Assembly: GCA_030584065.1 (NCBI GenBank)
Contig: CP129489.1
Coordinates: 1,777,497-1,841,496 of the forward strand
From: Flavobacteriales bacterium
GTDB lineage: Bacteria; Bacteroidota; Bacteroidia; Flavobacteriales_F; PHOS-HE28
Reading direction: 5' to 3'
Length of the DNA stretch: 64,000 nt
Both the position numbers and the translations under genes were made by a program. Below the pieces are notes generated by a model. It had not been told where the DNA came from, did not search any database, and saw only the letters and a program-made list of their open reading frames with translations. This document shows, one piece after another, positions 15,870-36,400 of this stretch. Each line of letters starts with the position of its first letter. Position 1 is the first letter of the stretch.

Positions 15870-16130
15870 CCGTGGAGGCGAAGGTATCCCGGGGCTTCCG
15901 GCGGCGGCCCGCTGTTGATAACGCGCCGCCCAACGCCCGACCCCGTCTGCTTGAGCCCCAAGGAGTGCAGCCCCGCCCGTTAACGTCAATTAACAGGCGG
16001 CTCGTCCCCCTCAGAACCCGCATCCGTCGCGGTGTCCGCGAAATCCGTCGACTTATCGGCGCCACTTGTGGACAGAAGAGGCAACCCCCACTTGGCTCCT
16101 TCGACTCCGCGGATAGTTTTGCCCGCCACC

Positions 16131-17054
16131 ATGCGGCTCAACGCTCTCCTCACCCTCCTCGCCGGTGCGCTGATCAGCGCACCGCTGCGCGCCCAGGTGG
16201 ACACCAGCGGATACGGCGGACCCGATGGCGTGGACATCTACGACGAGCTGGTGCCGGCCGACGAAGCGGAGGACGCCACGGTGGAAATCAGCCGTGCCGC
16301 CCGTGCTCTGGGCATCCTGAACGATGTGAACGACTCCCTCTCGGTGATTCCCGGCTACGACATGTACTGCCACTGGAACACCGAGGCCATCTTCGACCGC
16401 GGCAATACCTCCCGCTTCACGCACGACACGCTGTGCCTGCACCTGAGCGTACGCGACGACGACCATGCCCTTCCCTGTCCCGGGCATCTCACCTCCCCCT
16501 TCGGCCCCCGCAAGGGCCGCATGCACTACGGGCTCGACCTGAAGCTGCAGAAGGGTGACCCCGTGGTGTGCGCCTTCCCCGGCATGGTGCGCATCTCCAA
16601 GTACAACAAGACCTTCGGCCATGTGGTGGTGGTGCGCCACCATAACGGGCTGGAGACGCTCTATGCCCACCTGAGCAAGCGACTGGTGCAGCCCGGACAG
16701 GTCATCGCAGCAGGCGATACACTGGGCCTTGGCGGCAACACCGGCCGCAGCTACGGCAGCCACCTCCACTTCGAGGTGCGCTTCCTGGACCAGCCCATCG
16801 ACCCCGCACTCATCTTCGATGTGGAGAACGGCACGCTCAAGGCGCGGACCTTCGAGATCAATAAGGACACCTTCTCCGCCATGGCAGCGGCCAAGGCGGC
16901 GGCCGGCGCGCGCCGGTACCATGTGGTGCGCCGCGGCGACACGCTCTCGGCCATCGCCCGCCGGTACGGTACCTCGGTGAGCGCCCTGTGCCGGATGAAC
17001 GGCATCCGCGAGCGCTCCGTGCTCGCCATCGGGCAGCGCGTGCGCTACAACTGA
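16131..17054 (+). CDS. M23 family metallopeptidase with C-terminal LysM domain
   Basis: Signal peptide MRLNALLTLLAGALISAPLRAQ; HYGLDL...GNTGRSYGSHLHFEV M23 motifs; C-terminal YHVVRRGDTLSAIARRYG LysM. Confidence 0.85.
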   Translation: MRLNALLTLLAGALISAPLRAQVDTSGYGGPDGVDIYDELVPADEAEDATVEISRAARALGILNDVNDSLSVIPGYDMYCHWNTEAIFDRGNTSRFTHDTLCLHLSVRDDDHALPCPGHLTSPFGPRKGRMHYGLDLKLQKGDPVVCAFPGMVRISKYNKTFGHVVVVRHHNGLETLYAHLSKRLVQPGQVIAAGDTLGLGGNTGRSYGSHLHFEVRFLDQPIDPALIFDVENGTLKARTFEINKDTFSAMAAAKAAAGARRYHVVRRGDTLSAIARRYGTSVSALCRMNGIRERSVLAIGQRVRYN

Positions 17055-17123
17055 TCAGCCGCGGGAGCCTTGCTCCAACTTGGGATGGGGCCATGGCGCG
17101 CCGGTCGGGCGCAGCCTCCGCGC

Positions 17124-17711
17124 TCAGCGCCCCGCTTCCACCGCCCGTTTCACCCGGCTGATGTGCTCGAGCATGTCCTGGTTGTACTCCGGCGACAGCA
17201 CCACGTCATCGCCATCGCGCGTACGCAGCAGCAGCAGGTCGGCCCGCGCGCTGGGCATGCGGTCGATCATCTGCCGGCCCAGCCCCAGGGTGTAGGAGCT
17301 CAGGCCGATGTCGATGGTGCAGAAGCGCAGGTAGGCCCGCTCGGCGGCGCGACGCGAGCCGCCGCGGTCCTCCACCCGCACCGCGGCCTTCTTGCGCACG
17401 TAGTCGCGGCAGGCGGAGCGCTCGATGAGGCTGGCATCCACGATGTCCTGCGGGGCGATGGTGCGCTGGTGGCGGCCCCGGCTCAGCATCAGCCGGCCAT
17501 CGCGGATCACGTACGAAGCCCTGCGTCCACGGTCGCGCAGCACGGCCAGGGCCGTCAGCACCGCCACCACGCCGGCCGCGATGCCGATCCAGTAGAGCCG
17601 GCCTGAGGAGAACCCGTAGCTGGCCGCCACGAGGAGCAGGAACGGCGCCATGCCCAGCACCAGCAGGGTGTTGTTCCACTGCTTGCGCGTCCTGAACCGC
17701 TTGTCGGCCAT
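17124..17711 (-). CDS. membrane protein (PH-like/DUF304-type)
   Basis: Two TM helices followed by a soluble domain; no catalytic motif seen. Confidence 0.4.
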   Translation of the reverse strand: MADKRFRTRKQWNNTLLVLGMAPFLLLVAASYGFSSGRLYWIGIAAGVVAVLTALAVLRDRGRRASYVIRDGRLMLSRGRHQRTIAPQDIVDASLIERSACRDYVRKKAAVRVEDRGGSRRAAERAYLRFCTIDIGLSSYTLGLGRQMIDRMPSARADLLLLRTRDGDDVVLSPEYNQDMLEHISRVKRAVEAGR

Positions 17712-17772
17712 GGTTATGCTGCTTTGCGTCGCCTTCAAACTCGAAGGGCGGCCCGGTGGGCCGCCCTTGCTG

Positions 17773-17856
17773 TACCGGAGAAGGGACTCGAACCCTTACA
17801 ACCTTACGGTCACACGCCCCTGAAACGTGCGCGTCTACCAATTCCGCCACTCCGGT
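17773..17856 (-). tRNA. tRNA-Leu (anticodon CAG), type II with long variable arm
   Basis: Hand-folded. Acceptor stem ACCGGAG/CTCCGGT; D-arm GCG..GGTAGA..CGC; anticodon stem CACGT/GCGTG with loop TTCAGGG; 15-nt variable arm; T-arm AAGGG TTCGAGT CCCTT; discriminator A. CCA is not encoded. Confidence 0.85.
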
Positions 17857-18144
17857 GAGTGCCCCTGCTGGCAGGGGGCGCAAATATAGTGGCCCGGACA
17901 ATGCCGCAATGCATCACGGTGCAGCCGCGGCTTTCAAGTGCGGCTTCCCGGAAGCACGAAGCCCCCATCCCGCAAGCGGGACAGGGGCGACGTGACTCTT
18001 CAGACTGACCTTTGAACTACTTGGACAGGTGGTTGAACGGCAGCCGCTGAACGGGGGTTTCACAGCGCCGGAAAAAAATCGGAGGGTGTGCTGCTGGCTC
18101 AGGAATGCCGCTGCCGCGGGAGGCCGTCTAGCTTCGCCTCCCCC

Positions 18145-18474
18145 ATGAGCATCGCCGACGCCCGCCACCTCGCCCTTGCCGGTCTCGGCGGCGAGGAGTA
18201 TGCGCACTTCGGCAAGGCCGCCTACCGCATCGCGCCGCGCAAGCCCGGCGGCAAGGCCGGCCGCACCTTCATGACGCTGTGGATCGAGGAGGGCTTCGCC
18301 GTGCTGATGCTCGACCAGGAACTGCAGGCCGCCGCATTGGACCTCTCCCCTGCCTTTGAGCCCTACCCCGGCAAGTGGGGCGCTCACGGCGCCACCTTGG
18401 CCCGGCTCGATCGGCTCGATGCGCGCACCTTCCGCCAGGCGCTGGAGATGGCGCACCGGCATGCACGGCGATGA
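18145..18474 (+). CDS. MmcQ/YjbR family DNA-binding protein
   Basis: About 109 aa, ...GKWGAHGATLARLD..., YjbR-like. Confidence 0.5.
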   Translation: MSIADARHLALAGLGGEEYAHFGKAAYRIAPRKPGGKAGRTFMTLWIEEGFAVLMLDQELQAAALDLSPAFEPYPGKWGAHGATLARLDRLDARTFRQALEMAHRHARR

Positions 18475-18583
18475 GGCGGCGCCTCCCGGGCTGCTGACAG
18501 CACCGGCCACGGTATGCTTGAAAGGGGCGCAGGGCCCTCCGATGGAAAGCCCTGCGCCATGGCCGACGAGCATGCTCCGGCAG

Positions 18584-19123
18584 TCAGAACGCCTCCGTAG
18601 AAAGGAAGCGTGGCGAATCGGAGAGGCGGATGAGCATGGCTGTTTCGCCGCGCGGGCTGCGGAGGAAGAGCCGGCTGCCCGCCACTTGGATGCCCGTCGT
18701 CGCTTGAAGCGCTTCCACCAGGTCCGCCTCCTGCTCAGCCGTGCCGGGGCAGAGCTTGTGGGTGGCGCTGACGTCGCTGAACTGGATGGCCTCCCCGCTG
18801 GCGCGCACCGACCCGTTGATCTGATTGCAGCCTGTGAATCCCGTCAGCTCACCGCCTTGGATGCGGATCCACGGCATCAGCGCAGCAGGCTGCTGCACCC
18901 GGCGCGAGAAGAGGCGCAGCACCTTCCACGTGCCCGTCTGCACGGGCGGCGCGAGGTGCTTGGCTGCGTCGGTGACCTCCGGTTCGTGACCGGTCCAATC
19001 CGTAGCATCCACCGGTGCATCGATGGGTGCACTGGTTGGAACTGCCGTTTCCTCCTTGCGGCATGCCACTGCGGCCGCGATGACCCCGATGAGGAGCAGG
19101 TAAGGCCTTCTGTTCGTTCTCAT
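18584..19123 (-). CDS. META/DUF306 (HslJ-like) domain lipoprotein
   Basis: Signal MRTNRRPYLLLIGVIAAAVAC plus the META motif ...GFTGCNQINGS.... Confidence 0.6.
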   Translation of the reverse strand: MRTNRRPYLLLIGVIAAAVACRKEETAVPTSAPIDAPVDATDWTGHEPEVTDAAKHLAPPVQTGTWKVLRLFSRRVQQPAALMPWIRIQGGELTGFTGCNQINGSVRASGEAIQFSDVSATHKLCPGTAEQEADLVEALQATTGIQVAGSRLFLRSPRGETAMLIRLSDSPRFLSTEAF

Positions 19124-19535
19124 GGCATTGGGTATTGGTTCTAGAAAGCGACCGAAAGCTCCCCTTGCCATGATGCCTTCGCAATACCCACTCAGCAGGA
19201 TTGTGCCGACCGGTTGAGCCGTCCTGTGGCGGCGTGCAAGGCACTGCTGTCCACGCGAGCGGAGGGCCTGCGTGCTCGGCATAGGCGGCCTGGCCTTTGC
19301 GGCCCACCACGAGCTGGAAGCGCGCATCGTTCTCTTCGAACGTGCGCACCATCCACGCGAAGGTGGAAGTGCAGTTGCAGGGTTGGGCGTGGGTGGTCAG
19401 CAGGATCGTGGTTAAAAGCAACGGATGACGCGAACAGTGCGTGCATTGCATCGAATGCGAAATACGGAGATGACGCGTCCATTCGCTGCCGCCTTGGGCG
19501 TAGATGGGGATCCCAGACTGGTAAGCGCAAGCCCC

Positions 19536-20471
19536 TCAATCGAGCATCATCGGCACCACCAGCTCCACCTTGGCCACGGCCGGGTGACGCGCCAGCTGCT
19601 CCAGCTGCCCGATCAGGAATGGACCCGCCAGGCCGGAGACCGGCTTCGCTTCCACACCATCGCTGACCGCCTCCGAGAGCATCGCTTCGTCCGCGTAGCC
19701 GGAAGTGGTCTCCGTCAACCGGAAGCCGAACGTATCGAGGATCCGGTTGACCTCCATCATGTAGCCGAATGCGCCTGAACGCTCCATGCCGCCCGCGTAG
19801 AAAGTGATGCGCACGATGCCCGTGAAGGGGTGCTGCTGGGTCATGCTGAGCCCCGCGTGCGGCGTAACGCCCACCCATTCATGGAGATCGCGCTTCTGGT
19901 GCTCGGCATAGAGGCCAGCCGCTTTCACCGTCGGGTTCTTGCGCACCGCTTCCAGCTCGGCATTGTGATGCAGCTTGAACTTGCCGCCGCGCTTGAGCCG
20001 CAGATAGGTACAGGTATGGGGCTCACACACCAGACCCTGTTCCGCGAACCAAGGTCGTAGGCTGTCGGTGCGAACGCCAGGGTGGCAGTCCACTTCCAAG
20101 CGGCGCTCATCGAAGACCAGCCGGGGTTGACGATACCCTTCATCGATCAGGTGATACGGCCCCGTGCGCATCGTCATCCGCACCGTGTCAGGCATGGACC
20201 CATACCACTGGCAGCCGTTCAAAAGCTTGCCGGTGGCCTTCACCTGTAGCGCGTCGTAGCCCTCCGGCACCTGCTCGAAGGTGAATACGCCGTCCTTCTT
20301 CTCTGAGGGCTTTACACCGCGGTCGCGCACATCGCGCAGGGTGATGTGGGCACCGGGGAGCGGCTTGCCCTGCTCATCGTGGACGAGCACCACGAGGCGC
20401 TGGGCGCTGGCGAGTTTGAACGCGCAGGCGAATAGGATAACGAAGGGCCCGCACGGGTAGAAGGTGAACAT
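19536..20471 (-). CDS. hypothetical secreted protein
   Basis: 311-aa ORF with an N-terminal signal peptide; no recognisable domain. Confidence 0.4.
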   Translation of the reverse strand: MFTFYPCGPFVILFACAFKLASAQRLVVLVHDEQGKPLPGAHITLRDVRDRGVKPSEKKDGVFTFEQVPEGYDALQVKATGKLLNGCQWYGSMPDTVRMTMRTGPYHLIDEGYRQPRLVFDERRLEVDCHPGVRTDSLRPWFAEQGLVCEPHTCTYLRLKRGGKFKLHHNAELEAVRKNPTVKAAGLYAEHQKRDLHEWVGVTPHAGLSMTQQHPFTGIVRITFYAGGMERSGAFGYMMEVNRILDTFGFRLTETTSGYADEAMLSEAVSDGVEAKPVSGLAGPFLIGQLEQLARHPAVAKVELVVPMMLD

Positions 20472-20483
20472 GGTGCGCGCTCG

Positions 20484-21332
20484 CTATCGTTTCGGCTTCA
20501 ACCGCTTCGTACCCTGCTTCACCTGCTTGGCCTCGCTCTTCAAGCGTCGTTCGACCTTCTTCACATCCTCTCCCGGCGGGAGCTGCTCCGGCTTGATGCC
20601 ACGCTGGAGCATACTGCTCCGAACAGCCTTGTTGCTGGCCACATGCTCGTCACCGATCGACTTCGTACCGCGCAGGTCCTTCTCCAATACGTTGTGGCTC
20701 GTCATCTCCGTGGCGAAATCCTTCGCCTTGATCGCCAGGGTGGAAAGGAAGTCGGCCAGCGGACGTGCGTCGGGTGCGCCCAGCTTGCGTTTCATGTCGT
20801 TGGTGCTCGCGCCGCCGAAGAGCGCTTGGTCACCCTTGCAGCGGATCACCGCGAAGCCCGCGTGGTCCACGCCACGTTCGTAGATGATGCCGCTCAACTT
20901 CTTCTCACTCTTCATCAACTTCTCCCGGGCTGTCACGCGGGCCACGTCGAGCAGGCGCTGCTCGATCACCTCCTGCTTGCGCGTCTGCACGGCGAAGTAG
21001 GTCTGTGCGAAGGCAATGGCGGGCTTGGCCGGATCACCGTTCTGAGCGATGAGGTAGCAGGCGTACCGCGTGAGGGCGATGTCCTCGATCATGCGCTCGC
21101 TTCCGGAGCCAAGGGTGACCATTTTGCCGATCCCGGCAAAATGGTCGGAGACCGCTTCCCCAGCGGCTGCACAGGCCTCTTTCGCCTTGTCGATGACCGT
21201 GGAGAAATTGCTCCACTTGGTATAGCCGAGCACGACCTGCAGCTCCCGCGCGCTCCAGCACTCCACACCGTTCACCTCACCGCTCGCCGCCTCGAAACGT
21301 GCGAACAACTCCTGGATCTGGTCCTTCTTCAT
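20484..21332 (-). CDS. dinD: DNA damage-inducible protein D (Bro-N domain)
   Basis: MKKDQIQELFARF...ECWSARELQVVLGYTKWSNF..., a strong match to the DinD N-terminus; 282 aa. Confidence 0.8.
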   Translation of the reverse strand: MKKDQIQELFARFEAASGEVNGVECWSARELQVVLGYTKWSNFSTVIDKAKEACAAAGEAVSDHFAGIGKMVTLGSGSERMIEDIALTRYACYLIAQNGDPAKPAIAFAQTYFAVQTRKQEVIEQRLLDVARVTAREKLMKSEKKLSGIIYERGVDHAGFAVIRCKGDQALFGGASTNDMKRKLGAPDARPLADFLSTLAIKAKDFATEMTSHNVLEKDLRGTKSIGDEHVASNKAVRSSMLQRGIKPEQLPPGEDVKKVERRLKSEAKQVKQGTKRLKPKR

Positions 21333-21620
21333 GACGACCTTCCCGTCGATCGGGGTTCGGACAAGATAGTGGCGGGTCTTACTTCCCGAACACCTCCCTT
21401 CGCCTTCGCTGAAGCTGCGGCGAACGCGACCGGAGCCACTCCAGGCCTTGTCCGCCGTAGCCTGGCGGAGGCGGATACTCCGCTTTCTGGCCGGCGGCCT
21501 CCGCCGGAATGGCCAGTGGCTTGCCCGTTGTCCGCCGCAGCTTCAGCGAAGGCGGGTTCGTAGGCCTTGAAGCTCTGGCCCACGGTCGCCTCGGCGAAGT
21601 GGTCCATGCCTCCGCTAAAG

Positions 21621-22306
21621 CTACGGCAGGCAGGCGCGGAGCGAAGGGGCGCATACGAGCCGTAGCTCGGTATCGAAGGTGATCAGCCCGCGGTCAAAGG
21701 CCTTGTCGTGGAGGGCGTTGAGAGCGATGCCGTTCTGTGGATCAAGACGGTGCTGCTCGGCCACGTTCCACGGCACGATCCCGCGAAGCGGGACAAGTAG
21801 TGCGAGGCCACGAGCAGATCGCGGATGCCGAGTCCGGTCACCGCGCACCGACCGTTGTAAGCGTTGAGCACGGCTTGGCGGAAGTAGCGCTGGCCCCGGC
21901 GCACCTTCACCGAGGCGGTGCTTTCGGTGGGGCCTTCGGGCATACGGAGCACTTTGCCATCCGGTTGTACCACGACCGGCGCATCGGGATCGCCGGTCAT
22001 CAGCTGGGCCAAGAGCGCCTCGCTCTCAGGGGCCAAGGCCTCGTGCTGGGCGTGGAACTCCGCCCACACCTGACGGTCCAGCGCACTGGCGCCGGACAAG
22101 CCCCTGATGCCCCGCGCGGCCAATCGCTCGTCCAAGGAGGCCAGGTTGCTGAGCTTCATGGCCACGCTGCCCGGCGTGCGCTCCATCCGCTGGGCCACAT
22201 CGATCAGCACGGGGTTGCCCTGGTCGAACTTCCCAAAGGGGATCTTCTCGTACAGGTTCAGGAGGATCAGCAGCTCCTCGCGCGACCATGGTTTGCGGGT
22301 GGTGCT
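21621..22306 (-). pseudogene. HNH endonuclease (HNH_2/pfam13391-like) remnant: no start codon and a frameshift inside the HNH motif
   Basis: Conserved N-terminus ...PWSREELLILLNLYEKIPFGKFDQGNPVLIDVAQRMERTPGSVAMKLSNLASLDE... is preceded by an in-frame TGA with no ATG, GTG or TTG between. CAVTG...LLVASH is in one frame and IVPWNVAEQHRLDPQNGIALNALHDKAFDRGLITFD in the next. Confidence 0.65.
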
Positions 22307-22399
22307 TGACGATGCCGTTCCAAGTTTTCAACAAGACTTGGACCCGCCGCAATGTGTTCCTATAATGCTGTCGAAGTACTGTTGAAAAATCCGTCAATC

Positions 22400-22789
22400 A
22401 TGAGCGTCACCTCGAACCCCATTCCACACAGCGAGCAGGAGGCCCTGGGCATGCTGCTCCCGACACTTGGTCAACCCGTGCAGCAGCTTTCGCATGACGC
22501 GTTCAAGCAGGCATGGTCAGCTGTGTTCTATCTGTATGGCGGGTTGCATCCTGATGATGCCACCGACCACGGCACCCAGCTCATCACGGGCTTTGATGGT
22601 CCCGAGGAGTACAGGTCCATCGATCCGCGACTTGTCGTGCCCCGCTATCAGCAAAGTGGCTGGCCGGTGGTGCTTGCACCCTTGGCTGCCGAAGCATGGA
22701 CTAGGTATGAACTGGGCCTGCTTAGCGAGGATGAACTCTATTGCGCTGAGGTGCAACATGCCGGGTTCATGGAGCGGATGAAGGGCTGA
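22400..22789 (+). CDS. hypothetical protein
   Basis: 129-aa ORF downstream of an AT-rich stretch containing TATAAT; unknown function. Confidence 0.35.
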   Translation: MSVTSNPIPHSEQEALGMLLPTLGQPVQQLSHDAFKQAWSAVFYLYGGLHPDDATDHGTQLITGFDGPEEYRSIDPRLVVPRYQQSGWPVVLAPLAAEAWTRYELGLLSEDELYCAEVQHAGFMERMKG

Positions 22790-22880
22790 GCGATTCCCAG
22801 GGTCTGCCGTTGATATTTCTTTCCTCTGAGCCGACCTCCATGTTCATCCTGGTCCGAAACTTTACAACGAAGAACGAGGC

Positions 22881-24179
22881 ATGAAGAAGACCGCAAAGCC
22901 GCTCAAGCGCAAGGCGCCGTTGAGGAGGCAAGCCGCATCGAAGAGCAAGGAGTCGAAAGAGAGCAAGGCCCCCATGGCCATCAAGCGCTACTCAGGGAAG
23001 AAGGATGAGCGCGTTGCGGTGGTTGGAGAGCCAATGGTGCCCTACGGTCAAGGGTCATTCCGCTTCATCGACCTGTTCTGTGGCATCGGTGGCTTCCACA
23101 TCGCTTTCTCCAAGCAGGGTGGCGAATGTGTGTTCGCATCAGACTGGGACAAGTACGCCCAGATCTCCTACGCCGCGAATCACGGCCTTACTCCCATCGG
23201 TGACATCACCAAGGTGCCTGTGAAGGACATCCCTAAGCATGAGGTCCTTTGCGCGGGCTTCCCTTGCCAGCCCTTCAGCATTGCAGGTGTGTCTAAAAAG
23301 AACAGCCTCGGGCGCAAGCACGGCTTTGAGGATGAGCGGCAAGGCAACCTATTCTTCAACATCGCGGAGATCCTGGACCACCACCGTCCGGCGGCCTTCG
23401 TGTTGGAGAACGTGAAGAACCTGAAGAGCCATGATCGCGGGAATACCTACAAGGTGATCATGGACATCCTGCGGAACAAGCTCGGTTATCATGTCGTGGA
23501 GCCCCGCATCATCGATGCCAAGCCTTACGTGCCGCAACACCGGGAGCGCATCTTCATCGTTGGCTTCTGCGATGCCGCTGCGGCAGAGCGGTTCAAGTGG
23601 CCTACGCCTCCAAGCGAAGGCCCCAAGCTGCATACGATACTTCAACCCCGTGTGCCTGAGAAGTACACGTTGACCGACCATCTGTGGGCCTACCTCCAGA
23701 ACTACGCCGCCAAGCACAAGGCTGCGGGCAATGGCTTCGGCTTCGGTCTTGTGGGGCCGGATGACACAGCGCGCACATTGAGCGCACGCTACCACAAGGA
23801 TGGTTCGGAGATCCTGATCAACCAAGGCCGGGGGCGTAATCCGCGTCGACTCACTCCTGATGAATGTGCCTTGCTCATGGGCTATGAGGACTTCGAGATC
23901 GTGGTGAGCGATACGCAAGCCTATCGCCAGTTCGGCAACTCGGTCGTGGTCCCTGTTGTTACGGCGATCGCTGAGCAGGTGACCAAGGCCTTGGGCCTAA
24001 CCAGTGAGCAACACAAGCTGATGGCTTCCCATGCGGCCGAGCCAAGCACCACTTACACCAAGGCCAAGGCTTCCAAAGTCGGAGCGAAGGCTGTAGTTGA
24101 ACAAGATCTTAACGATCTTTCGGGGGCGATCAAGCCAGGCGCAAAGCAGAAGCGCAAGGCTGATCTTGCCCTTGCATGA
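22881..24179 (+). CDS. dcm: DNA (cytosine-5)-methyltransferase (Dcm family)
   Basis: Motif [10 protein letters not shown], motif [10 protein letters not shown], motif [10 protein letters not shown], motif [14 protein letters not shown]. Lys-rich N-terminal extension. 4-nt overlap with the next gene. Confidence 0.9.
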
Positions 24180-25372
24180 GCCAGTCCCTTGCAGACGTCT
24201 TTGATGCCGTAGCGCACAAGCGCCTTGTGCAGGTCGACCTTCCCGGAATGGGGTCGAACCAGCATGAATTGAATGGTGTATCAGCGCTTCGCGAGTTCTT
24301 CCAGACCAGCGAAAAGGTCGAAGGACCATTGCATTGGCACTACTTCGCCGATGATAAGGAGGTTGAAGAGCAGGAAGGGCGTTTCAGTTTCTATGATGCG
24401 AGGGCCAAGTCCGCCGAAAGGACGGGGCGCTCTGAGTGGCGTTTCTATTACTCCGGTGAGTTCCTTGCGAAGTGTGCACCAGGCGATGAGTTGATCATTG
24501 TTCGCGCGGCAGGCAAGGTGCATGCACTTGTATTTCAGCGAGGCTCAGCTCGTTTACGCGCGGCGCTTCTCCTGTTCGGCATTAGTTCCACAGGGGAGCA
24601 GATCAGTCTTCTGTCAAGTGAAGCAATAGCCAAGAGCGACCTCGCGCTTTTTCGGCGACAAGTCATCGAAGAGCTTGAGCTCGACGTCCAGTTGCCTGTT
24701 GCCGGTAACGACAAGGACTTGGTCATTGAGCGCTTCGGTGAGAAGTTCCCTTCAACCGCTGTCATGTCAGCCTTCGCGCGTGAGCAGGTCGGTTCGGATG
24801 TTGGGGACGCCGATGCTGCCTTGGTCGCGTGGCTTGATCGTGAAGAACAGCTCTTCCGCGCTCTGGAGGAGGTGATCATTAGCAAGCGCATCCAGCAAGG
24901 CTTCAAGGAGGTGGATGACTTCATCCAGTACTCGCTTACGGTTCAGAACCGCCGCAAGTCGCGCATGGGGCATGCCTTGCAGCATCACTTGGCCGAAGTG
25001 TTTACGCTCCACAAGGTTCAGTTCAAGGCTCAGGCGAAAACCGAGGGTGGCAACAAGCCCGATTTCATCTTTCCTGGCGAGGCTGAGTATCACAACGCAT
25101 CCTTCGACGAGTCGCTGCTTCTCATGCTTGGTGTGAAGTCCAGCGCGAAGGACCGTTGGCGTCAGATCCTTCCGGAAGCTTCGCGAATCGCCACCAAGCA
25201 CCTATGCACGCTGCAGCCTGGGATCTCAGAGAACCAGACCGATCAGATGGCCAGCGAACGTGTGCAATTGGTGATACCTAGTTCGATACAAGCCACTTAC
25301 ACGGATGCCCAGCGCTCCAAACTTCTGAGCGTTGCCGGCTTTATTGACTTGGTGCGTAGCAAGCAAGCGTGA
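24176..25372 (+). CDS. putative type II restriction endonuclease (EcoRII-like by size and context; PD-(D/E)XK-like ...KPDFIF...LGVKSS...)
   Basis: 398 aa, translationally coupled between dcm and vsr. A CCWGG-type M/R/Vsr trio is inferred from gene context only. Confidence 0.45.
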
Positions 25373-25735
25373 TGGCCAAGCGACACGACGTCTTCACCAA
25401 GGCCAAGCGCTCGGAGGTGATGTCGAAGATCCGGGGCAAGGGCAACAAAGCCACAGAGGTCGCCCTAGCCAAGCTATTTCGGGCCAGCGGCATCACCGGC
25501 TGGCGCAGACACTATCCCATTACAGGGAAACCAGACTTTGCCTTCCCCAAGCTGAAGTTCGCCGTCTTCGTGGATGGCTGCTTCTGGCATGGCTGCCCCA
25601 AGCATGGCACCCGGCCCAAGGGTGTAAGCTTCCCCGAAGTTCGGCCATTCATTGCTGGAGGTGAAGTGATCCTTGGCCCCGCGGGGCCAAGGATCGCTTC
25701 GGCCGGCCAGGGGCTACATTCAACCACACGTAGCC

Positions 25736-26008
25736 ATGAGAAAGAGCAAGTTCACCGAGCATCAGGTCATCGCCATCCTCAAGCGTCACGAGGCTGGCTC
25801 GAAGGTGGCCGACCTGTGCCGCGAGCACGGGATCAGCAACGCCACGTTCTACCAATGGAAGGCCAAGTATGGCGGCATGGAGCCCAACCAGGTCAAGCAG
25901 CTGCGTGACCTGCAGGAGGAGCTCAGCCGCCTGAAGCGCATGTACACCGAGCTGAGCATGGTGCATGATGCCTTGAAGCAGGTGGTGGAAAAGAAGTGGG
26001 GCGCCTGA
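25736..26008 (+). CDS. IS3-family transposase OrfA (HTH)
   Basis: [48 protein letters not shown]... Confidence 0.8.
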
Positions 26009-26033
26009 CGAGAAGCGCGAGATCGTTCAGGCG

Positions 26034-26807
26034 ATGATACAGGAGCACAGCATCTCCGAGCGCCAAGCCTGCGGCAGCGTGGGCTTGGCGCGCAGCACCG
26101 CGCAGTACTGCAAGACCCCAGCGGATGACACGCCCATTATCCAGGTCTTGGAACAGCTCACCCAGAAGCACCCGGCCATCGGGGTGTGGCAAAGCCATCA
26201 TCGGATGCGCTTGATGGGTCACCTGTGGAACTTCAAGCGGGTGTATCGGGTCTACACCGGTCTGGGCCTCAACATTCGTCGCAGGGCCAAGAAACGGCTG
26301 CCTGCACGGGTGAAGCAGGCGCTGTTCCGTCCTGCTGGTCCGGACCAGGTCTACAGCATCGACTTCATGCATGACAGCCTCTGGGACGGCCGGACCTACC
26401 GCTTGCTAAATGTGATCGACGACTACAACAGGGAGGTGCTCGCGATCGAGGTGGACACCTCACTGCCCGCACTGCGCGTGATACGCGTGCTGGAACGCAT
26501 CAAAGCAGTGCGTCCGCTGCCCAAGATGATCCGCGTGGACAACGGCCCGGAGTTCATCAGCGCCAAGCTCGACCACTGGTGCCGCGAACACGGCATTACC
26601 TTGACCTACATCCAGCCAGGCAAGCCCACCCAGAACGCCTACATCGAACGCCTCAACGGCAGCATCCGTCGTGAACTGCTCAGCGCCTACGTGTTCCGTA
26701 CCTTGGACGAGGTGCGCGAGAAGGCCGATGAGTGGATGACCGATTACAACCATCACCGCCCACACAAGGCGCTTGGCTACCGGCCGCCAGCGCCCATCCG
26801 ATCCTAA
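26034..26807 (+). CDS. IS3-family transposase OrfB (DDE integrase core)
   Basis: Has the DNGPEF motif and the rve fold. It lies in the +1 frame relative to orfA, not the usual -1 (see findings). Confidence 0.8.
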
Positions 26808-27040
26808 ACCTATGCCCCAGGAGCCTCTAGTTATGATCGGCCCGAAAACAGGGGAAGCTTACAAGGGCAACAGCGCGTTTTGGTCCGCGAAGCTGGACGC
26901 CAACAAGGCCCGGGACCGCAAGGTGAATCGTGAGCTTCTAGCCATGGGATGGCGCGTGCTAAGGATTTGGGAATGTAAGCTCCCCCAAGATCAGGTGCGT
27001 GGGATAGTAGAAACCCACAACCCACCTGAACTTTGGAGCA

Positions 27041-27307
27041 ATGAAGAAGAGTAAATGGACGGAAGCGCAGATCGTAGGGATGCTGCGCGAGCATGAGCAG
27101 GGCCGCAAAGTGGCGGACATCTGCCGGGAGCACAGAGTAAGCCAGCCGACGTTCTACCAGTGGAAGGCCAAGTATGGTGGCATGGGCGCAAGCGAGCTCA
27201 AGGAGCTACGGGCATTGCGCGAGGAGAATACCAAGCTGAAGCTCAAGCTGGCCGACACGATCCTGGACCGTGACATCCTCAAGGAGATCCTGGGAAAAAA
27301 GCCCTAG
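27041..27307 (+). CDS. IS3-family transposase OrfA
   Basis: [48 protein letters not shown]...; ends ...ILGKKP*. Confidence 0.8.
   Translation: MKKSKWTEAQIVGMLREHEQGRKVADICREHRVSQPTFYQWKAKYGGMGASELKELRALREENTKLKLKLADTILDRDILKEILGKKP
27295..27301 (+). promoter_or_regulatory. programmed -1 ribosomal frameshift heptamer A AAA AAG of IS copy 2
   Basis: 'gga aaa aag ccc tag' in the orfA frame. The -1 frame continues KKALGLAEKREMAHWLV... into orfB. Confidence 0.7.
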
Positions 27308-27327
27308 GGCTCGCCGAGAAGCGTGAG

Positions 27328-28227
27328 ATGGCACACTGGCTTGTAACGCAGTGCAAGCGCAGTGTTCGGCGGGTCTGCAAGCTGCTATGCTTGAGCCAGA
27401 GCGTGTATCGCTACGAGCCCAAGCCGAAGGACGATATCGACGTGATCGAACACATGAACCACTGGGTGACCAAGAAACCGACCTGGGGCTTTTGGAAGGT
27501 GTACACTCGTGTACGCAAGGACGGCCGTGTGGTGAACCACAAGCGCCTACACCGGCTGTACACCACAGCAGGGCTCAACCTGCGTCGACCTACGAAGAAG
27601 CGCGTTCCGGACCGGGTGAAAGAGCCACTGTGTTTGCCGATCGGCCCGAACATCACTTGGAGCATGGACTTCATGGCCGACCGGCTGCTGAACGGCAACA
27701 AGCTGCGCACGTTCAACGTCATTGACGACTTCGGCCGCGAGGCACTGAACATCACGATCGACACCTCTATCCGCGCCCAGTACGTGACGCGTGAACTGGA
27801 CAAGTTGATCGAGTGGCGTGGCAAGCCAGAGCGGCTGCGAGTGGACAATGGCCCTGAGTTCATCGCCCAGGAGATGGAATTGTGGGCGGAACGCAACGGC
27901 ATCGCACTTACGTTCATCGAGAAGGGGCGTCCCATGCAGAACGGCCTGATCGAGCGATTCAATCGCACCTACCGGGAAGAAGTGCTGGACGCCTACCTGT
28001 TCGAGAACCTCGAACAGCTTCGCCAGCTGACCATCGAGTTCATCTGGAGCTACAACAACGAGCGGCCCCATGATGCACTCCTGGACCTGACCCCGCGCGA
28101 GTTCCTGTTGAAATGTGGACAACTCCCTGCCCACTACGCAGGCTCACGCGCGGACTTCCCCACATTCCAACAGGATGATCACCACAGATCAACAGAAGTG
28201 GTGATCTTTAGGAATTCGCGCGCCTGA
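27328..28227 (+). CDS. IS3-family transposase OrfB (DDE)
   Basis: DNGPEFIAQ...; -1 frame relative to orfA. The OrfAB fusion is reachable by slippage at the A_AAA_AAG site. Confidence 0.8.
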   Translation: MAHWLVTQCKRSVRRVCKLLCLSQSVYRYEPKPKDDIDVIEHMNHWVTKKPTWGFWKVYTRVRKDGRVVNHKRLHRLYTTAGLNLRRPTKKRVPDRVKEPLCLPIGPNITWSMDFMADRLLNGNKLRTFNVIDDFGREALNITIDTSIRAQYVTRELDKLIEWRGKPERLRVDNGPEFIAQEMELWAERNGIALTFIEKGRPMQNGLIERFNRTYREEVLDAYLFENLEQLRQLTIEFIWSYNNERPHDALLDLTPREFLLKCGQLPAHYAGSRADFPTFQQDDHHRSTEVVIFRNSRA

Positions 28228-28311
28228 TCAGGGGGAGCTTACAGGAACATGACCTAACCGATAGGCGTGTTTCCCATACCATTAACCGCATTGAAGAATA
28301 CATCCAGATGT

Positions 28312-29175
28312 CTACCGCGAAGTAGGGTTTCGGAACAATACCATTTCCTTGAACTGAGCTGAGTCTAGTTGGTTATCGACTTCTCTCTCATTGTTCGCTG
28401 CAGTTGGTCCTCTCCAAACAGGAGATAGTCGCCAATTAATGACCCCGTTCCTTATACTATTCAGCACTGTTTCGGTCCATTCTGGGGAATAGGCGCAACC
28501 TGGCGGTGTGCTAGGTAAACTCATTGCATGAACAATCACAAATTCTAATCCTTTGTTAAACCTCTTTATGCATTGTTTCCACCACTTAGTTTTCACTGAA
28601 TGCTGAAGATGTGTATCATTCTCCATATAACCGAAAAGCTCCTCCTCGAAAATCTGGCAGAGTTTATCCATATTCTTAATTTCAGCATCCCTTAAGTAAC
28701 CCTCAGATTGAAATGGTGCATCAGCAGGAAGAGAATTGATGAACGCCTCTACGAACACATTCCAAGATTGGTCCGTAAGTCCGTGGTTTCTCCAATTTTC
28801 ACGATAGTGTCCAAGCTCGTCAAGCTGTGAGGTTACTCTTCCAATTATACGGAGCTTGGCTTCCGACCGACTAATACCCTCCCATGCAAGAGACTCACTA
28901 GCCTCGGCGCCAAAGCGGCGCTGCGCGTTTGTGAGTTCATCTTCGCTAATTGCAGAGTACTTTAATGCCTTATGTGTATACTGGTACTTATTCTGTGTGA
29001 ATTCATCATGTGCATTTGCAACAACTTCTAGAAAATCCTCATGATTTGGCCCTTTAAACACAGTAACTGGAACTGGTTGATTGGGCCGAGCGATGAGGTA
29101 AGCGCACAATCGATGATTGCCATCAAATACTTTTAACTGACCATCCGAGTATCGGCATAGAATAGGCGAAAGCAA
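28312..29175 (-). CDS. ParB/Srx-superfamily (DGQHR/DUF262-like) domain protein; no ATG start, in frame with the upstream HNH ORF
   Basis: ...SDGQLKVFDGNHRLCAYLIARPNQ... (D-G-x-H-R motif). Track start is a TTG. The 45 codons upstream, up to the HNH stop, contain no stop. Lower GC than the flanks. Confidence 0.55.
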   Translation of the reverse strand: MLSPILCRYSDGQLKVFDGNHRLCAYLIARPNQPVPVTVFKGPNHEDFLEVVANAHDEFTQNKYQYTHKALKYSAISEDELTNAQRRFGAEASESLAWEGISRSEAKLRIIGRVTSQLDELGHYRENWRNHGLTDQSWNVFVEAFINSLPADAPFQSEGYLRDAEIKNMDKLCQIFEEELFGYMENDTHLQHSVKTKWWKQCIKRFNKGLEFVIVHAMSLPSTPPGCAYSPEWTETVLNSIRNGVINWRLSPVWRGPTAANNEREVDNQLDSAQFKEMVLFRNPTSR

Positions 29176-29310
29176 TGGATTAGATCTCAGGTGCCATGCT
29201 AGGTTGATGACCTTGCGAACATCCGCTGCGCGTGTCTGTACTTGCCTGTCTACCCATAGCAGGGCTGGAGGAACAACAGTTGAAAATGAAGTCCATCTTT
29301 TATTGGTGAA

Positions 29311-29772
29311 CTATTGATGCATGACAGGATACTCCCTGTCTTGAAAGGTGGCTATATGTCGTTGATCATCCCATACAATATGCGCCTTGTACTCTGCAGC
29401 ATCAGGTGATCTCCCCGGAAGAAGGTCGTCTGAGAATCTTGTATTGGAGGCTTTGCGATGTATTTTAATATACTCAATCCATTCCTGTCCAGTGTACTTA
29501 TTGCCCTTCCCCTTGTGACAGTTCCTTCTTGCGGCAGTATCATATCCATCTTCAAAACAGGAAACTCCATCCCTTGCTGCATGAACAGGGTATTGATTGG
29601 CAACAAGGTCTGCTTGACGATCTCCGACTAATCCTTGGGCTAGCCAATGATCGAACTGGATATCTCCGAAATGTGCATATCCGTCGAAGTTTGAATGTGG
29701 TAAGCCCAAGCCGTCGCACACGTAGCATCGTGGCTTCTGCTCAAGTCTGCGCTCCTTCTCTGCTCGCGTCAT
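29311..29772 (-). CDS. HNH endonuclease domain protein
   Basis: CYVCDG...QFDHWLAQG...N...CHKGKGNK (CxxC...DH...N...CHxxK). Ends with a TAG at 29311-29313 in the same frame as the downstream ParB-like ORF. Confidence 0.7.
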   Translation of the reverse strand: MTRAEKERRLEQKPRCYVCDGLGLPHSNFDGYAHFGDIQFDHWLAQGLVGDRQADLVANQYPVHAARDGVSCFEDGYDTAARRNCHKGKGNKYTGQEWIEYIKIHRKASNTRFSDDLLPGRSPDAAEYKAHIVWDDQRHIATFQDREYPVMHQ

Positions 29773-30420: not shown

Positions 30421-30861
30421 TCATTTCAAGAACTCGTCCGTGAAGTTCCGCGCGCTCAGTATCCGTGTGTGTCCATAGCTCCGCATCGAGAGCAGGTCGT
30501 CATCGCCGGTGATCAGCAGATCAGCCTTCCCCTTCTTCGCCATCAGCAGCAGATAGTCATCCTTGGGGTCGCGGGAGAGGGGAGCCTGGCCGGTGGACCG
30601 CACCTCCACGGATTCCCCAGCTTCCGCCAGGGCGAGGATCAGTTGATGGGCGAACTCTACAGGGAAATGCTTGCGGAACCTCGCTCGTGCGGCCACATCC
30701 AGCAGCTCGGCCAGTAGTTGGGGGCTCACCAGCAGAACGAAGTCGCTGTGGCGCAAGGCAGCCACGAAGCCTCCCAGCCGCTTGCCGATCAGGAAGCTGA
30801 TGAGCACGTTGACGTCAACGACGACGCGCAGCGCGGCTCGCTTCCTTTTTGGCGGCGGCAT
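30421..30861 (-). CDS. PIN-domain toxin (putative toxin-antitoxin system toxin component, PIN family)
   Basis: VVDVNVLISFLIG...DDYLLLMAKKGKADLLITGDDDLL (the PIN acidic residues). Confidence 0.75.
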   Translation of the reverse strand: MPPPKRKRAALRVVVDVNVLISFLIGKRLGGFVAALRHSDFVLLVSPQLLAELLDVAARARFRKHFPVEFAHQLILALAEAGESVEVRSTGQAPLSRDPKDDYLLLMAKKGKADLLITGDDDLLSMRSYGHTRILSARNFTDEFLK

Positions 30862-33405: not shown

Positions 33406-36400
33406 ATGATCGACCGGATCATCAAGTTCTCCATCCACAACAAGGCCATCATCGGGCTGTTCACGCTCGTGCTGGTGCTTTACGGGGCGTACTCGCTCAC
33501 GCAATTGCCGATCGATGCGGTACCCGACATCACCAACAACCAGGTGCAGGTGATCACCACCACGCCTACGCTGGCCGCGCAGGAGGTGGAACAGTTCGTT
33601 ACCGCGCCCATCGAGCGGGCCATGGCCAGCCTGCCCGATCTGGTGGAGATCCGCTCCATCAGCCGCTTCGGGCTAAGTCTTGTGACCATCGTATTCGATG
33701 AGGACGTGGACGTGTACTTCGCCCGCACCTTGGTGGACCAGCGCCTGGGCGAGGCCGCCGCACTGATACCGCCCGGGGTGGGCACACCGACCATGGCCCC
33801 GGTAAGCACCGGGTTGGGCGAGGTGTACCAATACGTGCTGCACCCCAAGGAAGGGTACGAGGGCACCTTCAGCCCCAGCGAGCTGCGCACCATCCAGGAA
33901 TGGATCGTAGTGCGGCAGCTGTTGGGCACACCCGGTGTGGCCGAGGTGAACAGCTACGGCGGCGAGGTGAAGCAGTACGAGGTGAGCGTGGACCCCAAGC
34001 GCTTGCAAAGCATGGGCGTCACCATCGGTGAGCTACTGCTCGCGTTGGAGAGCAACAACGAGAACACCGGCGGCGCCTACATCGAGAAACGGCCCAACAG
34101 CTACAGCATCCGGGGCGAAGGACTGCTGCGCACGCTGGACGACATCCGCAAGGTGGTGGTGAAGATCCCGCCCGGCGGTGTGCCGCTCCTGGTGGGCGAT
34201 GTGGCCGAGGTGGGCTTCGGTGCGGCCCCGCGCTACGGTGCGCTCACCCGCAATGGCGAAGGCGAAGCGGTGGGCGGCACGGTGATGATGCTGAAGGGTG
34301 GCAACAGCGCCGAAGTGGTGAAGGCTATTGAAGCGCGCATACCGAACGTGCAGAAGGCCCTGCCGGAAGGGCTGATGATCGAACCCTATCTGGTGCGCAG
34401 CGAACTGGTGGGGCGGGCCATCGGCACGGTGAAGACGAACCTGATCGAGGGCGCGTTGATCGTGATCTTCGTGCTGGTGCTCTTTCTAGGAAATTGGCGC
34501 GCGGGCCTCATCGTGGCCTCGGTGATCCCACTGTGCATGCTCTTCGCCATCATCCTCATGAACGCCTTCGGCGTCAGCGGCAATTTGATGTCGCTTGGTG
34601 CCATCGATTTCGGATTGATCGTGGACGGCGCCGTGATCATCGTGGAGGCCACCCTGCACCACCTGCATGCGCGCTTCAAGGGAAGGATCCTTACCCGCGA
34701 GGAGATGGACCGCGAGGTTTTCGTGAGCGCCAGCAAGATCCGGACGAGCGCGGCCTTCGGCGAGATCATCATCCTGATCGTGTACATCCCCATCCTCACA
34801 CTGGTGGGCATCGAGGGCAAGATGTTCCGCCCCATGGCCATCACCGTCAGCTTCGCCATCCTGGGTGCCCTGTTGCTCTCGCTCACCTATGTGCCCATGA
34901 TGAGCGCGCTGGTGCTGCCGCGCAACACGGCGCACAAACCCAACTTCAGCGACCGCATGATGGACCGTTTCCAGAAGTGGTACGATCCCATCATCGGCTT
35001 CGCCTTGCGCAACCGGATCAAGACCGTGGGTGTGGCCGTGGCGCTCTTCATCAGCTCGGTCTTCCTGTTCGCACGCATGGGCGGCGAGTTCATTCCCACC
35101 TTGGAAGAGGGCGACTTCGCCTTCCACAGCATCCTGCCGCAGGGCGCATCGCTCAGCCAGAGCATCGCCAACAACGCCAAGGTGGAGAAGATCCTGCTGC
35201 AATTCCCGGAGGTGAAGCAGGTGGTGGGACGCACCGGCAGCGCCGAGATCCCCACGGACCCCATGCCCCCCGAAGCCACGGACCTCATGATCATCTTGAA
35301 GGACAAGGACGAATGGACCACCGCGCACGACCGCGAGGCTTTGCAGGACACCATGCTGCAAGCCTTGAGGCAGGTACCCGGCGTGTTCTACGAAGCCACC
35401 CAACCCATCCAGATGCGCTTCAACGAATTGATGACCGGCATACGGCAGGACGTGGCCGTGAAGATCTACGGTGAGAACATGGACACCCTCGCGGTGATCG
35501 CGAACAAGGTGGCGGCGATCATCGGCGAAGTGCAAGGTGCGGGTGAACCGCAGGTGGAAAAGGTGGTGGGCCTGCCACAGATCACCATCACCTACGATCG
35601 TGCACGGGTAGCGCAGTACGGCCTCAACATCCGCGAACTGAACCGCACCGTGCGCACGGCCTTCGCGGGCGAGGCCACCGGCGTCATCTACGAGAACGAG
35701 CGCCGCTTCGATCTGGTGGTGCGCCTCGGTGACCAACAGCGGCAGAGCATCGACGATGTGCGCACCCTCTTCGTGGCGCTGCCCGGTGGCGGACAGATCC
35801 AGTTGCAGCAGGTGGCCGATGTGTCCTTGACACCCGGCCCGGCCCAGATCAGCCGGGAGGATGCCAAGCGCCGCATCGCCGTGGGCGTGAACATCCGTGG
35901 CCGTGACGTGGAAAGCTTCGTGGAAGAGCTCCAAGGCCGCATCGATGCCGAAGTGCCAATGCCCGCGGCCTACTACTACACCTTCGGCGGCACCTTCGAG
36001 AACCTGCAGGCAGCTAGCAAACGCCTGATGCTGGCGGTGCCCATCGCGCTGGCCCTCATCTTCCTGCTGCTCTTCTTCACCTTCAACAGCGTGAAGCGCG
36101 CCCTGCTGATCTACACCGCCATCCCCATGAGCGCCATCGGCGGTGTGCTTGCGCTCATGGCGCGCGGCATGCCCTTCAGCATCAGCGCGGGCGTGGGCTT
36201 CATCGCGCTCTTCGGCGTGGCGGTGCTCAACGGCATCGTCCTCATCGCCACCTTCGACCAACTGGAAAAGGAAGGCATCAGCGACCTGAAGGAGCGCGTG
36301 TTGAAAGGTACCCGCACACGGCTGCGTCCCGTGCTGATGACGGCGGCGGTGGCCTCGCTCGGTTTCCTGCCCATGGCCTTGAGCGGCAACGCGGGCGCGG

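Follow-up and report, generated by a model that had tools for sequence, protein, structure and literature searches.

A vsr gene split by two distinct IS3-family insertion sequences in an EcoRII-type operon of a Flavobacteriales bacterium

The closest described relatives of the locus analyzed here combine a cytosine methylase with Vsr, which in Escherichia coli nicks the C(T/G)WGG mismatches that arise from deamination of 5-methylcytosine, according to the account of this enzyme in PMC3091744. In the E. coli dcm-vsr pair, the methylase and Vsr genes have overlapping start and stop codons, and in genes 45 to 47 of Burkholderia phage KL3 (PMC3091744) a Dcm-like methylase (M), a nuclease with the EcoRII catalytic domain EcoRII-C (R), and Vsr (V) form one module. 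Here, we describe an operon with the same three genes in a Flavobacteriales bacterium, located in a window of 64 kb (by which we mean the whole stretch analyzed, 64,000 nucleotides from position 1,777,497 to 1,841,496 of contig CP129489.1, assembly GCA_030584065.1). The operon resembles dcm-vsr in its Dcm-like methylase, its Vsr, and its overlapping start and stop codons, and it resembles the KL3 module in bringing M, the EcoRII-C nuclease, and Vsr together. It differs from the described systems in that (i) the gene order is M-R-V instead of the M-V-R of KL3; (ii) its nuclease lacks the recognizable EcoRII-N effector domain of EcoRII-type modules; (iii) its Vsr has a histidine where E. coli Vsr has the cysteine of the W-E-C motif; and (iv) its vsr gene is disrupted, unlike that of dcm-vsr and of EcoRII-type modules. 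The operon is horizontally acquired and lies in a lower-GC patch of a Flavobacteriales genome of 65-70% GC, and we put at roughly 90% the probability of the account as a whole, namely that two distinct insertion sequences (ISs) transposed into vsr, independently and very recently, and inactivated the gene. The features on which this account is built are as follows.

22881 to 24179, plus strand: M, C5 cytosine DNA methyltransferase (Dcm/M.EcoRII-like), 432 aa, first gene of the M-R-V operon, apparently intact
24176 to 25372, plus strand: R, type II restriction endonuclease with EcoRII catalytic C-terminal domain, 398 aa
25372 to 25622, plus strand: vsr fragment 1, codons 1 to 83 and 2 nt of codon 84 (residues 1 to 86 by tblastn)
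25619 to 25622 (left) and 26864 to 26867 (right): target-site duplication AGGG of IS copy 1, a single AGGG at the empty site of metagenome contig L001 (see below)
25623 to 26863, plus strand: IS copy 1, IS3 family, 1241 bp, with a 4-bp duplication and ends TGTAAGCTTCCCC...GGGGAAGCTTACA
26868 to 26973, plus strand: vsr fragment 2, 106 nt, finishing codon 84 (Gly) and running from Asn85 to Glu119
26970 to 26973 (left) and 28244 to 28247 (right): target-site duplication GGAA of IS copy 2, a single GGAA at the empty site of L001
26974 to 28243, plus strand: IS copy 2, IS3 family, 1270 bp, with a 4-bp duplication and ends TGTAAGCTCCCCC...GGGGGAGCTTACA
28248 to 28325, plus strand: vsr fragment 3, His120 to Lys144 and stop codon

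A sequence-only reading of this DNA had placed the two ISs and their AGGG and GGAA duplications at these positions, which a script reproduced exactly to the base, and had claimed that deleting each IS together with one copy of its duplication restores a canonical Vsr in frame. Joining the three fragments indeed yields 435 nt in frame and a 144-aa protein with the sequence quoted in that reading; neither insertion removed or altered a single vsr base. The family alignment that it had proposed as a check came out over the full length of the profile, with 116.5 bits against TIGR00632 (cut-off 97.85; residues 6 to 121 on profile positions 3 to 119 of 119), and the rebuilt protein also matches the Pfam family Vsr PF03852 (5e-21; 74.8 bits, cut-off 27) and aligns with E. 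coli Vsr 1cw0 (residues 6 to 138) and with the structures 1vsr and 1odg. In an alignment with 31 homologues (32 members in total), all 40 of the 40 invariant columns are kept, among them D55, C70, H73, C75, H78, D100, W118, and E119, and His120 is conserved in at least 90% of the members. The protein thus shows the aspartate of the PDF motif, the C-F-W-H-x-C-x-x-H cluster, the second aspartate, and W-E-(H/C), and by comparison with the E. coli structures these conserved residues would serve in catalysis or zinc binding. At the locus, however, the gene lies in three pieces separated by the two ISs, with Asp55, Cys70, His73, Cys75, and His78 on fragment 1, Asp100 on fragment 2, and His120 on fragment 3. 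Because the conserved residues are scattered over separated fragments, no Vsr activity would be expected from them, and the locus probably makes no functional Vsr. A tblastn search with the rebuilt protein found no second vsr in the 64-kb window.

The interruption is easily misread in automated annotation. An ORF finder call at 25369 to 25908 is vsr fragment 1 running on into IS copy 1, and a chimeric ORF at 26773 to 27054 begins in IS copy 1, reads ...RIWEC, and ends 25 codons into IS copy 2. The sequence-only reading had proposed that the TGT at the left end of IS copy 2 restores the cysteine of the Vsr WEC motif. This did not hold: the native motif is W-E-H, and cysteine occurs at this position in only 1 of the 31 aligned homologues. 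Since the native residue is histidine, the TGT restores nothing, and the E. coli-type cysteine is a coincidence. Its companion remark, that the middle piece mimics a complete C terminus and would mislead an ORF finder, was borne out, with RIWEC followed by 25 codons where the natural protein has 24 residues after W-E-H. We suggest that the three fragments and the two chimeric ORFs be annotated as one feature, "vsr, interrupted by IS."

The uninterrupted locus that the sequence-only reading had recommended looking for exists in public data. A protein search retrieved an intact 144-aa Vsr from JGI (P0001) that is 100% identical to the rebuilt protein over its full length, encoded on the metagenome contig Ga0498923_0007350 (L001) of a sister strain from sludge, which carries the same neighbors and an uninterrupted M-R-V operon. 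By BLAST and global alignment, L001 is 99.8% identical to window positions 15370 to 25622 over 10,253 bp, and it runs from 25622 directly into 26868 to 26973 and then into 28248 to 28400, so that both natural empty sites are represented. The differences amount to 19 substitutions and one 2-bp indel, all within 15390 to 20840, and with the ISs removed the 5,041 bp corresponding to 20841 to 28400 are without any difference. This identity around the cassette indicates that both insertions are very recent. As a separate observation, 12 of the 19 substitutions and the 2-bp indel fall within 113 bp (19322 to 19434) at the 5' end of the ORF at 18584 to 19327, a cluster that might mark either a tract of local recombination or a hypervariable spot. 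A second, separate public run assembly (L218, from Logan SRR24881069) matches window positions 20176 to 25651 at 100% identity and ends 29 nt inside IS copy 1, so the junction between vsr and this IS is independently reproduced. The public data therefore hold a near-isogenic pair of vsr-negative and vsr-positive versions of one operon with identical M and R, a natural experiment in which a genome-wide comparison or a methylome could measure the cost of Vsr loss outside E. coli.

The two elements share an architecture in which a small OrfA precedes a catalytic OrfB, arranged as follows.

25736 to 26008, plus strand: orfA of IS copy 1, 90 aa, HTH_Tnp_1 domain
26034 to 26807, plus strand: orfB of IS copy 1, DDE/rve catalytic part, frame open from ~25980 and +1 relative to orfA
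27041 to 27307, plus strand: orfA of IS copy 2, 88 aa, with the slippery heptamer A_AAA_AAG at 27295 to 27301
27328 to 28227, plus strand: orfB of IS copy 2, -1 frame, with a predicted OrfAB fusion of 395 aa

That the copies have a terminal repeat in common, as had been claimed for them, is correct: their inverted ends are perfect over 13 bp in IS copy 1 (TGTAAGCTTCCCC) and in IS copy 2 (TGTAAGCTCCCCC), and the common end motif, TGTAAGCTYCCCC, is found at just these four places of the window compared with 0.08 expected by chance. Both ISs bear the marks of the IS3 family, with an rve DDE transposase above the model cut-off (218 bits for IS copy 1 and 210 bits for IS copy 2 in OrfB against NF033516 transpos_IS3, cut-off 160), an upstream helix-turn-helix OrfA (79.6 and 75.4 bits, respectively, against HTH_Tnp_1), TG...CA ends, and short direct repeats; the orfB translation of IS copy 1 shows rve/rve_3 domains with the DDE context SIDF / VDNGPEF / YIERLN. 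The -1 orfB with A_AAA_AAG that is typical of the family is seen in IS copy 2, where a strong structure is predicted 3' of the heptamer (-50.1 kcal/mol, z = -2.6), whereas IS copy 1 has a +1 orfB and no heptamer. The transposases had been described as about half identical, which agrees with the 52% found for OrfA and 42% for OrfB (~57% for the DNA), and identities this low make them two different elements of one group rather than copies of a single IS.

Within the IS3 family, the IS407-type subgroup comprises elements of ~1.2-1.3 kb with TG...CA ends and a 4-bp duplication. The size, ends, and duplications of both copies fit this subgroup, and the likeness extends to the HTH_Tnp_1 OrfA with rve/DDE OrfB and the 13-bp inverted repeats and, for IS copy 2 alone, to A_AAA_AAG and the -1 orfB. 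IS copy 1 departs from it, as it is without a slippery heptamer and requires the frame to change by +1/-2 instead.

We searched for relatives of the two ISs in a plasmid collection, in metagenome stretches, and in a genome collection that does not include the source genome. A degenerate 24-nt pattern of the left end matched more than 120 metagenome stretches, mostly with AT-rich, Bacteroidota-like flanks, which makes the shared end a character of the group. Copies 100% identical to IS copy 1 over 1241 bp and 99.9% identical to IS copy 2 over 1270 bp are found beside other, unrelated sequence in metagenomes from sludge and bioreactors, indicating that both elements moved recently. The closest relatives in the genome collection are from Flavobacteriales metagenome-assembled genomes, at 90% nucleotide identity and 93-94% OrfB identity (94% for the best OrfB match of IS copy 1); with metagenome matches included, the best relatives, again in Flavobacteriales metagenome-assembled genomes, span 90-93% nucleotide identity. 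A near-identity DNA search of both ISs against the plasmid collection gave no match, and the plasmid OrfB matches reach at most 54% protein identity under the label "IS3 family transposase," too distant and too generic for a named IS to be assigned. Related to each other but distinct, the two ISs belong to an IS3-family group associated with Bacteroidota; they are unnamed, active elements that could be registered.

These relatives also bear on whether the double interruption might be an artefact of assembly, with repeat copies misplaced into vsr. ISs are multicopy repeats, several of the metagenome copies lack matching duplications, as chimeric joins would, and no other assembly shows the junctions of IS copy 2. 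Yet a 4-bp duplication is the rule for this IS group: the seven relatives with both flanks available likewise have terminal inverted repeats and are bordered by AAAC, GTCT, CCTC, GTGG, CAAC, GTAT, and AGCG, of which CCTC, GTGG, CAAC, and AGCG belong to relatives of IS copy 2. Perfect 4-bp repeats whose sequence is present a single time in the empty site are the signature of transposition and would arise at both places by chance with a probability of ~(1/256)^2; moreover, the vsr junction with IS copy 1 recurs in the independent assembly L218, and the source is apparently one single 3.9-Mb contig. We consider an artefact extremely improbable, and read both junctions as products of transposition.

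A third insertion, on L001, raises the separate matter of whether the hits are clustered for a reason. The last 127 bp of this contig (10511 to 10637) are the right end of IS copy 1, inverted and abutting the equivalent of window position 28400/28401, 75 nt past the vsr stop, where it falls within the 3' end of the ORF that occupies 28312 to 29175 on the minus strand. Counting both strains, 259 bp of original sequence have therefore taken three independent insertions, in a region that borders a stretch of 42% GC in a genome of 65-70% GC, and no copy of either IS is present in the 61 kb that make up the rest of the window, as a regional insertion hot spot at the 3' end of the operon would predict. 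Yet the duplicated tetramers of the two copies and their seven relatives show no consensus and no IS-end-like sequence lies near the vsr sites, although both were looked for as an explanation of the clustering. Alternatively, loss of vsr itself could have been selected, for example as relief from interference of Vsr with mismatch repair or as a local mutator advantage, but the third insertion leaves vsr intact, which points to a permissive or attractive region instead of selection against the gene, and related cassettes normally keep an intact vsr. Because the locus was chosen for having been hit twice, its clustering is also subject to ascertainment bias. Overall, we regard a nonneutral origin of the clustering, by either route, as unlikely and favor two independent insertions that were tolerated in vsr.

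Unlike vsr, the two upstream genes of the operon are without lesion, and both match the vsr-positive allele exactly. In the sequence, the stop codon of M overlaps the start of R (ATGA) and the vsr ATG at 25372 overlaps the stop of R (TGATG), which indicates one transcription unit of M, R, and vsr, with vsr last. M matches Pfam DNA_methylase (2.8e-80), NCBIfam dcm TIGR00675 (287.8 bits), and the E. coli Dcm model PRK10458 (384.9 bits, under that model's cut-off of 710). The claim that the dcm-like methyltransferase is intact stands, with the motifs FCGIGG, PCQ, ENV, QxRxR, and GNSV visible in its translation and 100% identity to the allele of L001. R, recorded at NCBI as WKZ67841.1, "type II restriction endonuclease," matches Pfam EcoRII-C over residues 227 to 390 (1.3e-66) and the EcoRII structure 1na6 over residues 172 to 390 (4e-41), with PDF(I/L)FP and KDRWRQIL kept. 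A Dcm-like C5 methylase thus adjoins a nuclease with the EcoRII catalytic domain, as in EcoRII-type restriction-modification systems. Residues 1 to 170 of R (24176 to 24690) gave no Pfam or PDB sequence match, including to the B3-like EcoRII-N effector domain, and this N-terminal third may serve as an effector or regulatory domain of another kind.

The course of events reads as follows. The M-R-V operon was acquired horizontally, and the two ISs transposed separately into vsr, each leaving a clean 4-bp target duplication in an otherwise perfect gene. Such hits would be tolerated in a promoter-distal, nonessential member of the operon, since insertion there spares M and R, whereas loss of M with an active R would be lethal by leaving the chromosome exposed. 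If M is active, T:G mismatches from deamination of 5-methylcytosine would go unrepaired by the cassette's own enzyme, which would raise the frequency of C-to-T transitions at M sites. The genetic basis for such a rise without Vsr lies in the E. coli work that PMC3091744 cites (Lieb 1991; Hennecke 1991), and by analogy a CCWGG-methylating cell without Vsr should plausibly gain C-to-T changes at the methylated cytosine. In itself, the vsr knock-out is nothing out of the ordinary, an IS-mediated pseudogene in a defense patch that is decaying in a sludge Flavobacteriales genome.

No observation contradicts the structure described above; the points that weigh against the account concern mainly its proposed consequences. 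The junctions of IS copy 2 are seen solely in the window. CCWGG, methylated on its second cytosine, is the target predicted for M from its Dcm/EcoRII homology, and the activity of M is likewise presumed. No footprint of C-to-T change at CCWGG is visible: none of the 19 substitutions between the window and the vsr-positive L001 lies in CCWGG, and all 29 CCWGG sites within their overlap of 10.5 kb are the same in both. The observed/expected ratio of CCWGG in the window is 0.84-0.87, in the 19th to 24th percentile of all 5-mers, a mild and unremarkable value, and the corresponding ratios of the deamination products are 1.22 for CCAAG and 1.03 for CTTGG. A backup vsr or another T:G enzyme may exist elsewhere in the 3.9-Mb genome. 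For the missing footprint, we note that none would be expected yet, because the divergence around the locus is zero and the power of the comparison is too small.

These points leave some room for a knock-out that is phenotypically silent, either because another enzyme covers T:G repair or because M is not expressed or active. It is common for a bacterial genome to have several vsr genes, together with the corresponding methylases, and only 64 kb of 3.9 Mb are in view; the CCWGG frequency is near expectation; and the neighboring HNH nuclease gene is frameshifted in both alleles, so the patch is decaying. On the other hand, Vsr is usually matched to the sequence context of its partner methylase, as described for the C(T/G)WGG specificity of the E. 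coli enzyme in PMC3091744, M and R are free of lesions and identical to the vsr-positive allele, and a cell whose R is apparently intact can survive only with an active M. A silent knock-out is in our judgment rather doubtful, although it deserves more weight than the clustering and artefact scenarios, and we lean toward a vsr loss that may be felt at M sites. As for the sequence-only reading, its structural part is confirmed and its interpretation as a whole is partly supported: the predicted loss of T:G repair with C-to-T hypermutation at methylated sites is plausible from E. coli genetics but finds no support in the window or in its comparison with L001.

The frame arrangement of IS copy 1 merits separate consideration. 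The one IS3 subgroup of +1 type that we found described is IS1447 of Firmicutes, in which +1 transcriptional slippage takes place on an A9 run (PMC6211511). IS copy 1 is like IS1447 in that a -1 ribosomal shift would not yield a full-length transposase and differs from it in having no A run of at least 7, in the conserved GGGGCGCC_TGA_C at the orfA stop, and in belonging to a clade in Bacteroidota. Its orfB is at +1 relative to orfA (26034 - 25736 = 298), and the region between the two is the following.

25989 to 26033, plus strand: putative recoding region of IS copy 1, AAAAGAAGTGGGGCGCC_TGA_CGAGAA invariant in the clade, with a predicted stem, orfB at +1

The predicted stem pairs 26002 to 26011 with 26023 to 26033 (-16.6 kcal/mol, with a modest z = -1.6), and sublineages vary at loop and bulge positions only. 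Among 73 related loci compared, 59 have orfB at -1, and the more distant relatives of IS copy 1 are of this canonical type, whereas every close relative that could be compared cleanly (OrfB identity of 77% or more) has it at +1. The loci of the clade with the +1 arrangement (L002-L008, L026, L027, L143, L155, L160, L183, and L199) lack A_AAA_AAG. Canonical relatives read GAA_AAA_AAG_CTT_TAA_CGC_CTG_ACG; in IS copy 1, AAAAGAAG takes the place of the unbroken A run, and there is one nucleotide fewer before CGCC. We also considered that the +1 orfB might be the lesion of a defective copy and rejected this explanation, because relatives at 90% and 76% identity keep the frame without indels and with an invariant junction, and because 100% identical copies occur at other sites. 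In the close relatives, AAAAGAAGTGGGGCGCCTGACGAGAA is invariant around the orfA stop; the arrangement is kept in at least five sublineages of 76-100% nucleotide identity, and identical copies at several sites indicate that the element still transposes.

On this comparative basis, we tentatively propose, at somewhat below even odds, that IS copy 1 represents a Bacteroidota IS3 clade that has lost A_AAA_AAG and would make OrfAB through a programmed event at the invariant "shifty stop" GGGGCGCC_UGA_C. This event could be a prfB-like +1 shift or a -2 slip of tRNA-Ala from GCC to GCG. The NCBI pipeline models two relatives (P0156 and P0157) as 357-aa fusions reading KKWGAPDEK, which corresponds to -2 re-pairing from GCC to GCG and has the same length as the canonical KKALTPDEK, whereas KKWGADEK would be expected from a +1 shift at GCC_UGA_C. 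A literature search for a recoding site of this type found no report, which does not in itself establish novelty; the site may be one that is as yet undescribed for IS3-family elements. In a further locus (L009, DASPKH010000101.1, labeled Patescibacteria), a relative 70% identical to IS copy 1 combines an A7 run (GAAAAAAAG) with a +1 orfB, which suggests IS1447-like transcriptional slippage in a lineage between the canonical and the IS copy 1 arrangements.

Other genes surround the operon. On the minus strand at 21683 to 22210 lies an HNH type II restriction-like gene (PADLOC HNH, 1.3e-36) that is frameshifted after ...LLVASH, the conserved IVPW...NGIALNALHDKAFDRG going on in another frame to ~21560. 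L001 is 100% identical here and carries the same truncated 175-aa HNH call, which makes this an older pseudogene and not a sequencing error. Just upstream of it, a minus-strand gene at 20484 to 21332 encodes a DinD/Bro-N-like protein of the candidate defense family PDC-S13 (2.8e-114), and the two genes are consistent with a small defense patch from ~20.4 to 31 kb. A large island linked to tRNA-Leu was considered and rejected: the low-GC stretch is a mosaic that includes efflux, methylmalonyl-CoA mutase, and secreted-protein genes, so only the small patch is described here. Between the operon and a PIN toxin gene (30421 to 30861), two minus-strand ORFs of 287 and 153 aa and 42-49% GC occupy 28312 to 29772; searches of Pfam, NCBIfam, and PADLOC gave no match for either, and the 287-aa ORF contains a DGQ...DGNHR stretch reminiscent of ParB/DndB-like proteins. 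Finally, a plus-strand ORF of 1440 aa at 33406 to 37728 joins a full AcrB-type RND transporter (941 bits) to a C-terminal outer-membrane efflux protein (OEP) domain, an unusual fusion provided that the ORF is real.

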